Assembly: GCA_020631855.1 (NCBI GenBank)
Contig: JACKGU010000002.1
Location: forward strand, 234,615-298,614
From: Candidatus Nomurabacteria bacterium
Lineage (GTDB): Bacteria; Patescibacteriota; WWE3; UBA101185; UBA10185
Reading direction: 5' to 3'
DNA length: 64,000 nt
The notes beneath the pieces were generated by a model that saw only the letters and a program-made list of their open reading frames with translations, ran no database searches and was not told the origin of the DNA. This document shows, one piece after another, positions 355 through 54,800 of this stretch; positions within the stretch are counted from its first letter, which is position 1, and the number at the start of each line of letters is the position of its first letter. The position numbers and the translations under genes were made by a program.

Positions 355-465
355 ATCAACCACCACTATCTAAGCGGCTGTTTGCTGTAATTGTAAAGCC
401 TGGCATGTTGCATAAGCTACATCTACTAGATCATGCAAGTAGTTTTAAGTAACGAAATTATAAAG
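355..465 (+). repeat. Copy R1 of the intergenic repeat family: 3' module, with an internal ~10 nt deletion
   Basis: atcaaccaccac...gctgtaatt...catgttgcat...acatctactag...caagtag...gtaacgaaattataaag shares the family's conserved core and its 3' end GTAACGAAATTATAAA. It sits immediately upstream of tRNA-Thr. Confidence 0.6.
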
Positions 466-5045: not shown

Positions 5046-6269
5046 GTGGATCTGCTCAAAAAACTTATCATTATTCTATACGCCACCTCATTAGGTTTGA
5101 TGACGGTAAATTTTATTTTTGTAAAAACGCCAAAAACGTATAACATAAAATCCCCGGTTCACGGTAGTTTTTCGGTCCTTGCTGCGGTCGATCAACAAAG
5201 AGAAAATTACATTGTCTACGGCTTTTTACCTTACTGGAAACTTGATAACGCAAAATTCATACAAACAGATAAGCTAACTGACATTGCCTACTTTGGGCTT
5301 AAGATAGAAGGAAACGGCGAAATAAGAAGGTTTGAAGAGCCCGGAGTACTAGAACCAGGCTACAACAACTGGAAAAATAACCCTGAACTTTCAAACCTCA
5401 TTTCTCGAAGCAAAAAAGCCGGAGTTAGATTTGCTTTAACCATAATATCTCACGAAGACGAGGTTTCAGATGAGTTTTTAAATTGCACATCCTGTTGGCA
5501 AACACTAATAAATGAGATAGGGATTGAACTTGAAGAAAAAAATATAACCGACGTCAATCTCGATTTTGAGTACTTTGGATACACAGATTTGGAAACAGCC
5601 TTAAAATACTCTGCCTTTGCTAAACAGCTAAACGACACGCTCGATGCTCGTTACAATAACAACTCGAAGGTTATCGTCTCAACATTTGCCGATTCTGTTG
5701 TTAAACCAAGAGTCACACACATTGACACGTTAGCAAAATATACAGACGGGCTTTTTGTTATGGCATACGACTTTCACAGGCCCGCCTCAGCTACTGCAGG
5801 ACCAATCGCGCCTTTGGGCGGAATGGGCGATAAAAGCTCTTACGACGTGATCACAATGCTCAAAGCGTACCTATCCACTATGTCGCCCGATAAAATAATT
5901 TTAGGCGTGCCGTACTACGGCTACAACTGGCTAATCGACGAACAAGCACCTTATGCAAACAGGGTTGAAGGTAACGACTACATAGGATACTCCGAATCTC
6001 AGCCTTACGAAACAATTGTATACGATATTAAGGAGCTAAATTCTTTAATTTTATGGGATAACATAGGGCAAACTCCATATTATTACTATCGATCTCCGGA
6101 CTCAGGAGCTTTGAGAGTCGTTCACTTTGAAAATAAAGACTCTTTAAAAATGAAGTATGGGCTTGTTAAGCAATACAACCTGGGCGGTGTCGGATTATGG
6201 GCCTTAGGTTACGATGGCCAGCTCCCTGAACTATGGGACTTACTGGGGAAAGAGTTTGGGAAAAAATGA
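5046..6269 (+). CDS. Glycoside hydrolase family 18 (chitinase-like), membrane-anchored
   Basis: DVNLDFEYFGY matches the GH18 catalytic DxxDxDxE motif; MAYDFH and YYGYNW match further GH18 motifs. N-terminal TM anchor; GTG start at 5046. Confidence 0.7.
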   Translation: MDLLKKLIIILYATSLGLMTVNFIFVKTPKTYNIKSPVHGSFSVLAAVDQQRENYIVYGFLPYWKLDNAKFIQTDKLTDIAYFGLKIEGNGEIRRFEEPGVLEPGYNNWKNNPELSNLISRSKKAGVRFALTIISHEDEVSDEFLNCTSCWQTLINEIGIELEEKNITDVNLDFEYFGYTDLETALKYSAFAKQLNDTLDARYNNNSKVIVSTFADSVVKPRVTHIDTLAKYTDGLFVMAYDFHRPASATAGPIAPLGGMGDKSSYDVITMLKAYLSTMSPDKIILGVPYYGYNWLIDEQAPYANRVEGNDYIGYSESQPYETIVYDIKELNSLILWDNIGQTPYYYYRSPDSGALRVVHFENKDSLKMKYGLVKQYNLGGVGLWALGYDGQLPELWDLLGKEFGKK

Positions 6270-6376
6270 AGACTCCGTGGACTGAAATCCCACGGCTCTT
6301 CTTTCTTTGCAGTTGAGAGCTCACGCTTTCATCTTCGAGCTAAAGCACAGGACCTTCCCGATGCAGAAATAAATAG
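6266..6376 (+). repeat. Copy R0: solo 5' module of the repeat family, placed between the GH18 stop codon and tRNA-Val
   Basis: ATGAAGactccgtggactgaaatcccacgg...cgagctaaagcacaggaccttcccgatgcagaaataaat is about 80% identical to the 5' halves of R5 and R4. Its first bases (aTGAag) include the GH18 TGA stop codon. Confidence 0.6.
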
Positions 6377-6468
6377 CGTGTAGGTTCGAAACCACTAACT
6401 AAGTTGAAATATCTTTATCTATGAGAGGCTTCTTCGCAAAATATGTGACAGGTTAGGTGTTTTTATTA

Positions 6469-6545
6469 TGGTGGTCGGAACAGGACTCGAACCTGTGACC
6501 CCTGCAATGTGAATGCAGTGCTCTAACCAACTGAGCTACCCGACC
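6469..6545 (-). tRNA. tRNA-Val (anticodon CAC), with encoded CCA
   Basis: The reverse complement GGTCGGGTAGCTCAGTTGGTTAGAGCACTGCATTCACATTGCAGGGGTCACAGGTTCGAGTCCTGTTCCGACCACCA folds as a cloverleaf: 7-bp acceptor, anticodon stem CTGCA/TGCAG with loop UUCACAU, discriminator A73. Confidence 0.85.
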
Positions 6546-6599: not shown

Positions 6600-7148
6600 G
6601 TGCTTTTTGTTACTATATTATGTATGCCAAATTTTCGAAGAGCCGCACTCCATTTTTTACTCGATACAATTGAAATATTAGTTATAGGTACTTGCCTTGC
6701 CGCTTTCTCTTGGCTTGTAATTGCAGAGGCTGTAGAGGTTACAGGAGATTCAATGCTCCCAACACTACAGAATAGAGAGAGATTGATTGTAGAAAAGGTT
6801 TCGATAAAACTAGATAAGGTGGGACGTGGCGATATAATTGTCTTTAAATCCCCCCAGGATGATAAATTATTAATAAAAAGAGTAATCGCATTACCAAACG
6901 AATACCTGGAAATTATTTCACAAGACGTTTATGTGGACGGGAAGATGCTTCCAGAACCTTATGTCTCAAATCACGAAAACATGTCATCAATGAAAGTTCA
7001 ATTAAAAGATGGGGAATATTTTGTAATGGGAGACAACAGAGGCGTGAGTAACGACTCTAGAAGGTTCGGCCCCATTAAACAAAGCTCAATATTCGGCCAC
7101 GCCGTACTAATAATCAGCCCCGTGCAAGAATTTAGAATAATTAACTAA
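6600..7148 (+). CDS. lepB: Signal peptidase I (S26 family)
   Basis: GDSMLPTL carries the catalytic Ser box; GDIIVFKSP, LIKRVIALP (Lys box) and FVMGDNRGVSNDSR match the other S26 boxes. One N-terminal TM segment. Confidence 0.8.
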   Translation: MLFVTILCMPNFRRAALHFLLDTIEILVIGTCLAAFSWLVIAEAVEVTGDSMLPTLQNRERLIVEKVSIKLDKVGRGDIIVFKSPQDDKLLIKRVIALPNEYLEIISQDVYVDGKMLPEPYVSNHENMSSMKVQLKDGEYFVMGDNRGVSNDSRRFGPIKQSSIFGHAVLIISPVQEFRIIN

Positions 7149-7173
7149 AAAAACAACCCCAGAATCCCTCTAC

Positions 7174-7295
7174 AATCAACTGCCACCAGCTTGTGCAGGT
7201 GGTTTGCTGTAATTTCTTTGCACTGCAAAGCCCAACATGTTGGGTAATCTGCATCTACTAGCCTGCGCAAGTAGATTTAGGTAACGAAATTATAA
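7174..7295 (+). repeat. Copy R2: 3' module, followed directly by a 13-nt stub of the 5' module
   Basis: atcaactgccaccagcttgtgcaggtggtttgctgtaatttctttgcactgcaaagcccaacatgttgggtaatctgcatctactagcctgcgcaagtagatttaggtaacgaaattataaa. The next bases (7296-7308), ATGAAGGttcagg, match the 5'-module start ATGAAGGctccgtgg. It lies between the convergent 3' ends of lepB and rpmA. Confidence 0.65.
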
Positions 7296-7344
7296 AATGA
7301 AGGTTCAGGAAAATTGCAAACTTTTTACGATGAGCTTGAATCTA

Positions 7345-16373: not shown

Positions 16374-16663
16374 ATTAAAGAGGATTTCAGAAACCGGTAG
16401 GCTTAAACTGCCTGAAAGACTACAGGTTTATGGAATCCGGTCAGGAATTTTATACTTTTTTGTTTCAAGTCTTATCTTTTCATAATCAAAAAAACAATAC
16501 CACTAATGCCGATTAATACTTGAACTATTTTGAACTACTGTGGAAATTAAAAATCAATAAACAGGTATTTTTTTTAACCGATCCTATATTGCAACATTCT
16601 AAATTTTAACATTTATGATTTTCTATTACTGCTAAAGGGTTTGAAAGCTCTTAATAACTCTAA

Positions 16664-16781
16664 GCAACCACCAGCTGACGCAGGTGATTTGCTGTAATTT
16701 CTTTGCTCTGCAAAGCCCAACATATTGGGTAAACTACATCTACAAGCCTACACGAGTCGTTTTAAGTAACGAAATTATAAA
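16664..16781 (+). repeat. Copy R3: 3' module, with remnants of the 5' module upstream (~16630-16663)
   Basis: agcaaccaccagctgacgcaggtgatttgctgtaatttctttgctctgcaaagcccaacatattgggtaaactacatctacaagcctacacgagtcgttttaagtaacgaaattataaa. It sits between the ftsZ 3' end and the nrdJ 5' end. Confidence 0.65.
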
Positions 16782-31851: not shown

Positions 31852-32071
31852 ATGAAGAGACTACGGACATAAGTCCGTAGCCTCGCCCCTACTGCTCCAC
31901 GCATAAACTTTCACCGCGAACTAAAGCAAGGGGCCTTCCCGCTGCAGAAATCAACCACCGCCAGCTTACGCTGGCGGTTTAATGTAATTTCTTTGCACTG
32001 CAAAACCCAAAATGTTGGGCAAACTAAATCTACTAGCCCACGTAAATAGGTTTGAGTAACGAAATTATAAA
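31852..32071 (+). repeat. Copy R4: full-length bipartite element (5' module plus 3' module)
   Basis: ATGAAGagactacggacataagtccgtag...gaactaaagcaaggggccttcccgctgcagaaatcaaccaccgccagcttacgctggcggttt|aatgtaatttctttgcactgcaaaacccaaaatgttgggcaaactaaatctactagcccacgtaaataggtttgagtaacgaaattataaa. It lies between the uvrA 5' end and the 3' end of a LysM gene. Confidence 0.7.
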
Positions 32072-32170
32072 GTTGAGAACGGGTACGAGACAAAAAATAT
32101 ACCCCTTGGGCAGGGGTATAGGGGTAACGTAATAACAACCTAGTGTTATTATTCTATTGCAATATAATAA

Positions 32171-43481: not shown

Positions 43482-43708
43482 ATGAAGGCTCCGTGGACTA
43501 AAGTCCCCAGTCTCTTCTTTCTCCGCGGTTGAAAGCCCACGCCTTCATCCCCGAGCTAAAGCACGAGGTCTTCCCGCTGTGGAAATCAACCTCCGCCAGC
43601 TTACGCAGGTGTTTTGCTGTAATTTCTTTGCTCTGCAAAGACCAACATACTGGGCAAACTACATTTATTAGCTTACGCGAGTAGAGTTTTAAGTAACGAA
43701 ATTATAAA
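43482..43708 (+). repeat. Copy R5: full-length bipartite element
   Basis: ATGAAGgctccgtggactaaagtcc...cgagctaaagcacgaggtcttcccgctgtggaaatcaacctccgccagcttacgcaggtgtttt|gctgtaatttctttgctctgcaaagaccaacatactgggcaaactacatttattagcttacgcgagtagagttttaagtaacgaaattataaa. Its 3' end abuts the pgm stop codon with a 3-nt gap, and the 5' end lies 70 nt upstream of the ppsA ATG. Confidence 0.7.
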
Positions 43709-51849: not shown

Positions 51850-52052
51850 TCCTGCTGATGCTTTTAGAATGTTGGCGCATCTACACTTTTACTCCTTTCA
51901 GCCTTCGCCGATAAGCTAAAAGCTGAAGAACGTCAACCGCACCGGCTTATGCATGTGTTTTTCTGTAATTTCTTTGCGCTGCGAAGCACAACATGTTGGG
52001 TAAACTACATCTACTAGCTTACGCAAGCAGTTTCAAGTAACGGAACTATAAG
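51850..52052 (+). repeat. Copy R6: diverged full-length element (the 5' module is recognisable from ...cgataagctaaaagctgaag...)
   Basis: ...ccgataagctaaaagctgaagaacgtcaaccgcaccggcttatgcatgtgtttttctgtaatttctttgcgctgcgaagcacaacatgttgggtaaactacatctactagcttacgcaagcagtttcaagtaacggaactataag. It lies upstream of mraZ, at the left edge of the GC-rich island. The 5' boundary is uncertain. Confidence 0.55.
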
Positions 52053-54678: not shown

Positions 54679-54800
54679 AATCAACTGCCGCTAGCTCACT
54701 CAGGCGGGTTACTGTAGTCTCATTACGCTTCAAAGCCAACATTTCGGGCAAAGTACATCTTCTAGCCTATGCAAGTGGTTTTGAATAACTAAACTATAAA
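54679..54800 (+). repeat. Copy R7: diverged 3' module
   Basis: aatcaactgccgctagctcactcaggcgggttactgtagtctcattacgcttcaaagccaacatttcgggcaaagtacatcttctagcctatgcaagtggttttgaataactaaactataaa. It lies in the divergent region between glyQS and the small gene paired with the Y-family polymerase. Confidence 0.5.

Follow-up and report, generated by a model that had tools for sequence, protein, structure and literature searches.

Two-module intergenic repeats in a Patescibacteria genome as probable non-autonomous IS200/IS605-type elements

Locus, copies and anatomy of the repeat

The window analyzed here is a stretch of 64,000 nucleotides (nt) from contig JACKGU010000002.1 of a metagenome-assembled genome (MAG) labeled Candidatus Nomurabacteria. 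Its genes are housekeeping ones (the dcw cluster, uvrA, uvrB, uvrC, phosphoenolpyruvate (PEP) synthase, enolase and two tRNAs) and between them lies a dispersed repeat, present in 8 full or partial copies that were all assigned to the plus strand when first read. The copies are strictly intergenic, 60-86% identical and partly decayed, and nhmmer relates them to one another with E-values of 1e-18 to 1e-33. When read on the minus strand of the window the repeat consists of two related mini-elements, module A of ~117 nt and module B of ~100 nt, and it is modular, occurring in solo A, solo B, A-A and A-B arrangements. We consider it likely that the family consists of non-autonomous IS200/IS605-type elements, of the kind termed palindrome-associated transposable elements (PATEs), residing in a Patescibacteria genome. 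Attention had been drawn to the locus by a hairpin in what was called the 5' module of a single unit (module B here; the 3' module is module A), for which an original prediction made from the letters of the window claimed base pairs preserved by compensatory changes between copies. That the 5' module is the 5' part of one unit is not borne out, as the modules are separable, each of the two also occurring alone and the 3' module as 3'-3' dimers.

Our data set comprises 4 module-B copies and 14 module-A copies. Module B is represented by R0, R4 and R5 of the window and by a copy at L017:8705-8817 that was gained by extending the window 10 kb to each side, an extension that added no new module-A copy. 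Scanning collections of genome and metagenome contigs for TGTAATTTCTTTGCNCTGCRAA returned one true additional copy (L006), three scans of viral contigs for the repeat gave no match, and a search for spurious open reading frames (ORFs) with the translated repeat led to two contigs of the same species (L025 and L026) that hold six further module-A copies, including two head-to-tail dimers. Searches with nhmmer profiles over ~150 kb, at E-values up to 50, yielded no additional module-B copies. The copies in the window are as follows; a caret marks an element boundary.

355..459, minus strand: Rm, internally deleted module A that lies 21 nt upstream of tRNA-Thr (481-556)
6266..6368, minus strand: R0, solo module B, reads TTTAT^TTCTGC...CTTCAT^ and carries the studied hairpin; the flank ATAAA at 6369-6373 (plus) is TTTAT on the minus strand
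6268..6301, minus strand: studied hairpin of R0, with an inner stem (6275-6280/6290-6295) and the outer helix GAAGA/TCTTC; proposed as the subterminal hairpin at the right end of module B
6333..6352, minus strand: left-end hairpin (H3) of R0 module B, degenerate, TCCTGTGC-TTTA-GCTCGAAG, 16 nt from the TTTAT junction
7139-7174: module-B remnant that adjoins R1 module A
7175..7291, minus strand: R1, module A, 117 nt; TTTAT target at 7292-7296 (ATAAA on plus)
16663..16776, minus strand: R2, module A whose right end is degenerate (GTTGCTTAG); flanked by the ribonucleotide reductase gene and by ftsZ
31852..31949, minus strand: R4, module B; best-preserved studied hairpin at 31861-31880, 12-bp extended stem on minus
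31950..32066, minus strand: R4, module A abutting module B; minus-strand junction GGTTGAT^TTCTGC, TTTAT target at 32067-32071
43482..43584, minus strand: R5, module B; hairpin at 43491-43510 decayed
43585..43703, minus strand: R5, module A, 119 nt; TTTAT target at 43704-43708, 8 nt past the phosphomannomutase stop codon
about 51880-51931: deleted module-B remnant to the left of R6 module A
51932..52047, minus strand: R6, module A with mutated target CTTAT and mutated right end GTTGAC
54680..54795, minus strand: R7, solo module A, 116 nt; TTTAT target at 54796-54800

On the minus strand module A, 116-119 nt in length, reads TTTAT^ AATTTCGTTACTTAAAA CTACTTGC-GTAA-GCTAGTAG ... CAGCAAA CCACCTGC-GTAA-GCTGGTGG TAGTTGAT^. 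The left half of module B reads TTNAT^ TTCTGCRGCGGGAAGR (16 nt to the hairpin foot) CCCCGTGC-TTTA-GCCCGGGG, then ATGNAG, and the right half consists of an internal stretch, GAGA, and CTACGGAC-TTAT-GTCCGTAG TCTCTTCAT^; in L017 the counterpart of the degenerate left-end hairpin of R0 is CCCCGTGC-TTTA-GCCCGGGG as well. The studied hairpin is probably the subterminal hairpin at the right end of module B, whose TTCAT terminus is 9 nt away. Terminal inverted repeats are absent, the ends AATTTCGTTAC... and ...GGTAGTTGAT of module A and TTCTGC... and ...CTCTTCAT of module B not being reverse complements. Absent too is a target duplication, since the TTTAT of the left flank is not repeated past the right end; the right flanks (TGTAGAG, TATTTTG, AAATGCG, TAAGTGC and CTATGAA) are mutually unrelated.

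The two module-A hairpins, CTACTTGC-GTAA-GCTAGTAG and CCACCTGC-GTAA-GCTGGTGG, have 16 of 20 bases in common, are two compensated pairs apart, and leave one shared stem position unpaired (columns 25/34 in 12 of 13 copies, columns 97/106 in 14 of 14). The left hairpin of module B is of this same type, and the right one shares the geometry of the others with a different sequence. From the left junction to the foot of the hairpin there are 17 nt in module A and 16 nt in module B, and the right tails measure 8 and 9 nt, respectively. The 14 module-A copies are preceded by TTTAT (11 copies), CTTAT (one) or TTGAT (two), the last at tandem junctions where TTGAT is the right end of the neighboring unit. 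Solo module B follows TTTAT in R0 and TTCAT in L017, and composite module B follows the terminal TTGAT of module A; the right termini themselves are TTGAT (A) and TTCAT (B).

Some further features of module A may be recorded here. The head-to-tail dimers (L025 10021-10270 and L026 6279-6494, minus strand of each locus) are joined by GTTGAT^AATTTC, the junction expected of an excised IS200/IS605 circle or, equally, of an insertion beside the target-like terminus of a resident copy. The first bases of the element are complementary to a stretch just 5' of the right-end guide, TAATTT(C)/(G)AAATTA (7216-7222 with 7286-7292). Across the 14 copies 96% of the positions pair, R7 having exchanged one A-T for G-C, and the contact might join both ends in single-stranded DNA. 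Between the end hairpins, the core (7222-7253) contains two near-perfect short palindromes, CTTTGCAnTGCAAAG and CCCAACATGTTGGG, both highly conserved.

In order to compare these ends with a system of known mechanism we have used IS608, where the left cleavage site is 19 nt 5' of the left hairpin foot and outside the element, the right cleavage site is 10 nt 3' of the right hairpin, and four-base guides 5' of each foot pair with the cleavage tetranucleotide, through C-3:G-35 and T-4:A-34 with A-2 unpaired (PMC3201880). A rule derived from this code, guide = comp(c2) comp(c1) A comp(c4) where c1 to c4 are the bases of the cleavage tetranucleotide, reproduces the IS608 pairs TTAC/AAAG and TCAA/GAAT, and was applied here to ends whose hairpin feet had been fixed beforehand.

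A-left: cleavage TTAT, predicted guide AAAA, observed AAAA
A-right: cleavage TGAT, predicted guide CAAA, observed CAAA
B-right: cleavage TCAT, predicted guide GAAA, observed GAGA
B-left: cleavage TTAT, predicted guide AAAA, observed AAGA

Guide positions 1, 2 and 4 obey the IS608 rule at every one of the four ends. Of the pairs, c2:g1 is the informative one; it is complementary each time, through three different base pairs (T:A, G:C, C:G and T:A), for which base composition gives a probability of ~0.004, a value to be read with the ends not fully independent of one another.

Stability and covariation of the studied hairpin

The hairpin sequences quoted originally are present, with coordinates that lay 1 nt too far to the left: CCGTGG-ACTGAAATC-CCACGG in R0 is found at 6275-6295, CTACGGAC-ATAA-GTCCGTAG in R4 at 31861-31880, and ccgtggactaaagtccccag in R5 at 43491-43510, with the outer helix GAAGA/TCTTC extending the hairpin of each copy. 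The R5 version, described originally as partly disrupted, has two mismatches on the plus strand and one mismatch with one G-T pair on the minus strand. With DNA parameters the hairpin z-scores are -4.3 (R0), -5.9 (R4), -2.4 (L017) and +0.4 (R5), and across folds those of the three folding copies range from -2.4 to -6.4. The R0 hairpin folds as DNA with -7.9 kcal/mol on the plus strand and -8.6 kcal/mol on the minus strand (z about -4), R4 reaches z-scores of -5.8 and -6.4 on the two strands, and for neither R0 nor R4 did any of 200 shuffles fold as well. In all four copies, and with both RNA and DNA parameters, the hairpin is more stable on the minus strand because C.A mismatches of the plus strand become G.T pairs there.

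When substitutions are simulated starting from R4, at the observed level of 13-14 changes in 34 nt, only 1.0% of the products match the fold stability of R0 and 0.5% that of the L017 copy. A stable hairpin is kept despite heavy divergence in three of the four copies, more than neutral change would lead one to expect, and it is the shape that is conserved and not the alignment columns; these statistics rest on four module-B copies and have low power.

The column-wise evidence is a different matter. All four module-B copies align without gaps across the hairpin, and in this alignment R4 pairs position i with 35-i and R0 pairs i with 36-i, the L017 copy requires a bulged C, and R5 has two mismatches. 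The three compensatory double substitutions reported between R0 and R4 arise from sliding the 3' arm of R0 by one base, and because of this register shift between the two copies column covariation is nil. With the R4 structure imposed on the columns one pair is changed on both sides, a result equaled by 224-290 of 500 shuffles, so that column-wise covariation in the four copies gives no significant signal. The reading of double compensatory changes as a signature of selection is thus lost upon alignment and addition of the fourth copy, and, since a lack of significant covariation had been named at the outset as what would refute it, the covariation claim is unsupported. Module A fares no better: five pairs show double changes, 44-121 of 500 shuffles are as good, and covariation is not significant. 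The RNAalifold consensus is weak (-6.9 kcal/mol, with a covariation term of +0.58), and G-U pairs and A-C mismatches, 34 versus 21, give no clear strand signal. The studied hairpin is of little value as evidence, be it for RNA structure or for classical covariation.

Strand orientation and lineage distribution

At nine of nine independent loci, in the window and its flanks, the top strand of the element is the G-rich strand that bears most of the genes. The GC skew of the plus strand is negative throughout the window (-0.05 to -0.15) and most genes are on the minus strand, which makes the minus strand the probable lagging-strand template. That template is also the one used by IS608 and ISDra2 (PMC5027513). 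The orientation of the L006 copy is consistent with this pattern, and the skew of L025 and L026 is ambiguous. Orientation is independent of the neighboring genes, three copies lying 3' of plus-strand genes and four between minus-strand genes.

Two syntenic relatives carry no copy of the repeat anywhere in 22 kb each. In these the gap between the phosphomannomutase and PEP synthase genes is 9 and 48 nt, as compared to 300 nt with R5 in the source genome. The copies, being absent from both relatives, are lineage-specific and probably insertions, the relatives being distant ones with about 73-74% PEP synthase identity. Near-identical strains all carry the same copies. With regard to the host, the named close homologues of the PEP synthase belong to candidate division WWE3 or the Patescibacteria group and the nearest is only 74% identical, which points to a poorly sampled lineage and possibly to a mislabeled MAG.

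Origin of the repeat

The element kind that these observations suggest is already known. PATEs, as described in Haloquadratum walsbyi and Geobacillus stearothermophilus, are defined by the absence of terminal inverted repeats and of target duplication, by mutually similar near-terminal palindromes, by a length too short for a transposase, by a 4-5 bp targeting sequence on the 5' side, and by a longer distance to the 5' palindrome than to the 3' one (PMC3119063), and each point of the definition is found in the present repeat (PMC3119063, PMC10055086). Differences from those cases are that no parent IS605-type transposon was identified in this lineage, that the copies are more diverged (60-86% identity) and that no strain-specific insertions were observed. 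The likeness to IS608 and ISDra2 extends over the missing terminal inverted repeats and target duplication, the similar imperfect subterminal hairpins at both ends, insertion 3' of a short target, and a top strand on the inferred lagging-strand template. With IS608 in particular the repeat shares a left cleavage site outside the element, the asymmetry of spacing (17/16 nt on the left and 8/9 nt on the right, compared with 19 and 10) and a 4-nt guide able to pair with the cleavage tetranucleotide, in which the A at -2 stays unpaired. Module A has a recurrent unpaired base in its hairpins, and the right-end hairpin of IS608 likewise carries an extra-helical T (PMC3201880). In contrast to both insertion sequences there is no tnpA or tnpB inside or near the units, which are only about 100-119 nt, two distinct mini-elements occur fused or in tandem, and the host is a Patescibacteria, or candidate phyla radiation (CPR), bacterium. 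ISDra2 has the target TTGAT, to which the TTTAT and TTGAT found here are similar.

If IS608 is taken as the model, a Y1 (HUH) transposase provided in trans would bind the folded hairpins on the single-stranded lagging-strand template. It would cleave after the TTNAT sites, which would be held in place by base pairs with the four guide bases 5' of each foot. The element would be excised as a single-strand circle and re-inserted 3' of a TTTAT target. Any left end could pair with any downstream right end, and such free pairing, along with right ends that mimic the target, would produce the solo, A-A and A-B arrangements. Were the hairpin kept as a shape and not as a sequence, different copies would come to have different stems. 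The present copies look old, partly decayed and possibly inactive. Of the two options offered originally for the hairpin, a transposase-recognized subterminal hairpin of the IS200/IS605 kind is thus the one we favor, on account of the architecture, the target and terminal motifs, the guide/cleavage complementarity, the strand bias and the retention of the hairpin; a comparison with left ends had been suggested, and in the reading favored here the studied hairpin sits at the right end, on the strand complementary to the one first read.

Several observations weigh against a PATE origin. Pfam tables for the ~115 kb of the species examined list no Y1 transposase, TnpB or IscB gene, no strain-level presence/absence polymorphism or empty site was seen, and mobility is what we infer. 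The right hairpin of module B has the apex GGAC-NNNN-GTCC with no unpaired base, the other three having a YTGC-NNNN-GCR apex with a T.T or T.C mismatch, so that recognition of all four by a single transposase is not assured; guide position 3 is G, and not A, at both module-B ends, and in both respects module B differs from IS608 and ISDra2. In addition, guides or ends are mutated in many individual copies, TTTAT and A-rich tetranucleotides are common in a genome of 40% GC, and the "AT" of TTNAT could belong to the element instead of the target. The leading/lagging assignment is based on GC skew and gene orientation and not on a mapped origin. Finally, hairpin retention could stem from templated quasi-palindrome correction instead of selection.

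The last point is central to what we consider an improbable alternative, namely that these are host-adopted or neutral repeats of the REP/BIME, BOX or ERIC kind whose palindromes are kept by templated mutation or gene conversion. Quasi-palindrome correction can yield apparent compensatory changes without selection, and could thus mimic compensation here; the strictly intergenic setting, the modular solo, tandem and composite units, and the partly decayed copies of 60-86% identity would all be at home in such a family. There is a real likeness to REP/BIME repeats with their RAYT (TnpA-REP) proteins: these too are hairpins repeated between genes, look like the ends of IS200/IS605 elements and are probably substrates of a Y1 HUH enzyme. 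No RAYT gene was seen in the ~115 kb of the species examined. The alternative offers no account of why TTNAT is constant in flank and termini, why guide and cleavage site are complementary at four ends, why the spacing is asymmetric or why the orientation is uniform on one replication strand. Moreover, REPs are, according to PMC3333891, single palindromes of 20-40 nt that usually occur as inverted pairs, unlike the two hairpins here, which stand in direct orientation and bracket a 117-nt unit with defined TTNAT boundaries. That we are dealing with unrelated short inverted repeats, arising by chance in AT-rich intergenic DNA, has a negligible probability in our estimate: only four copies carry the hairpin and one of these is broken, but inter-copy homology at E-values of 1e-18 to 1e-33 effectively refutes such a reading, and z-scores of -2.4 to -6.4 with 0 of 200 shuffles matching R0 or R4 speak against it as well.

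A functional RNA, be it a small RNA, a guide scaffold of the omega/reRNA type from the right end, or a terminator, with the stem under selection for RNA folding, was the other option offered for the hairpin, and we regard it as quite improbable. R4 does fold far better than shuffles on both strands, hairpins on the minus strand score as terminator-like, and the TTTAT^AAT left junction provides a TATAAT box that points inward. PATEs often encode omega RNAs (PMC10055086), so that an RNA role overlaps with a PATE origin; the two are compatible, and nothing in the data requires such a role. Rfam gives no match at any threshold over the repeats (with Rfam 15 the window contains only two tRNAs at gathering score, and the repeats nothing better than E = 0.4), covariation is not significant in module A or in the studied hairpin and the alifold consensus is weak, the 34 G-U versus 21 A-C counts provide no clear strand signal, R5 folds no better than shuffles, the T-runs after the hairpin are not conserved, and no TnpB or IscB gene was seen in ~115 kb. 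Orientation, moreover, is fixed to the chromosome and not to the flanking genes. Lineage-specific presence, a single orientation, separable modules and the lack of Rfam matches and covariation together lead away from an RNA gene.

Four other candidates were considered and rejected. Were the plus strand the active one, the hairpins would stand 6-8 nt from the left end and 19 nt from the right end, which reverses the IS608 arrangement; nor is the plus strand the lagging-strand template. A classical miniature inverted-repeat transposable element would have inverted terminal repeats, which are lacking. Integron attC sites do not fit with flanking genes that are housekeeping genes and not cassettes. 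R0 and R1 are not a single element split by tRNA-Val and lepB, as their homologous ranges overlap by ~35 nt.

In the literature searched there was no description of PATEs in Patescibacteria. A PATE origin would explain a puzzling modular intergenic repeat of a poorly studied candidate-phylum genome by a well-understood mechanism, and would modestly extend the known range of single-strand transposition. The IS608 guide/cleavage code would be readable even from gene-less relics, so that the active strand and exact boundaries can be assigned, and such elements would provide a marker of replication direction in genomes of this type. A more far-reaching version, which we put forward tentatively and believe to be unlikely, is that of a two-module family of single-stranded DNA mini-transposons in a streamlined CPR/Patescibacteria genome, with any left end pairing with any downstream right end; the units may persist, or may once have spread, with a transposase coming only from outside (for example from a phage, a host or another community member), or else they may serve as carriers of a trans-acting guide RNA (omega RNA). 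If true, the TATAAT at every left junction could make insertions portable promoters for downstream housekeeping genes.

The TTTAT^AATTTC junction makes a perfect TATAAT hexamer at every module-A left junction (for example 32064-32093, 7289-7296 and 43701-43708), one that faces the interior of the element and the minus-strand gene downstream. In R4 a scan with the promoter consensus pairs TATAAT with TTGTCT across an 18-nt spacer, with 10 of 12 matches, and the junction could serve as a portable promoter. Just upstream of the R4 target a hairpin with a T-run resembling an intrinsic terminator (TATACCCCTGCCCAAGGGGTATA TTTTTT; 32098-32120, minus strand) follows a 151-amino-acid ORF; this ORF has its own terminator-like hairpin, so that the terminator is independent of the repeat.

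The repeat also touches genes at its edges. The terminus of R0 (6266-6269) provides the TGA stop of a GH18-like ORF (5046-6269), and the module-B remnant of R1 (7139-7148) overlaps the stop of a signal-peptidase ORF (6600-7148). Three copies have tRNA genes as neighbors: module A of Rm is 21 nt upstream of tRNA-Thr (355-556), solo module B of R0 is ~100 nt from tRNA-Val (minus strand; 6266-6545), and solo module B of L017 lies ~64 nt upstream of tRNA-Asp (L017 8705-8957).

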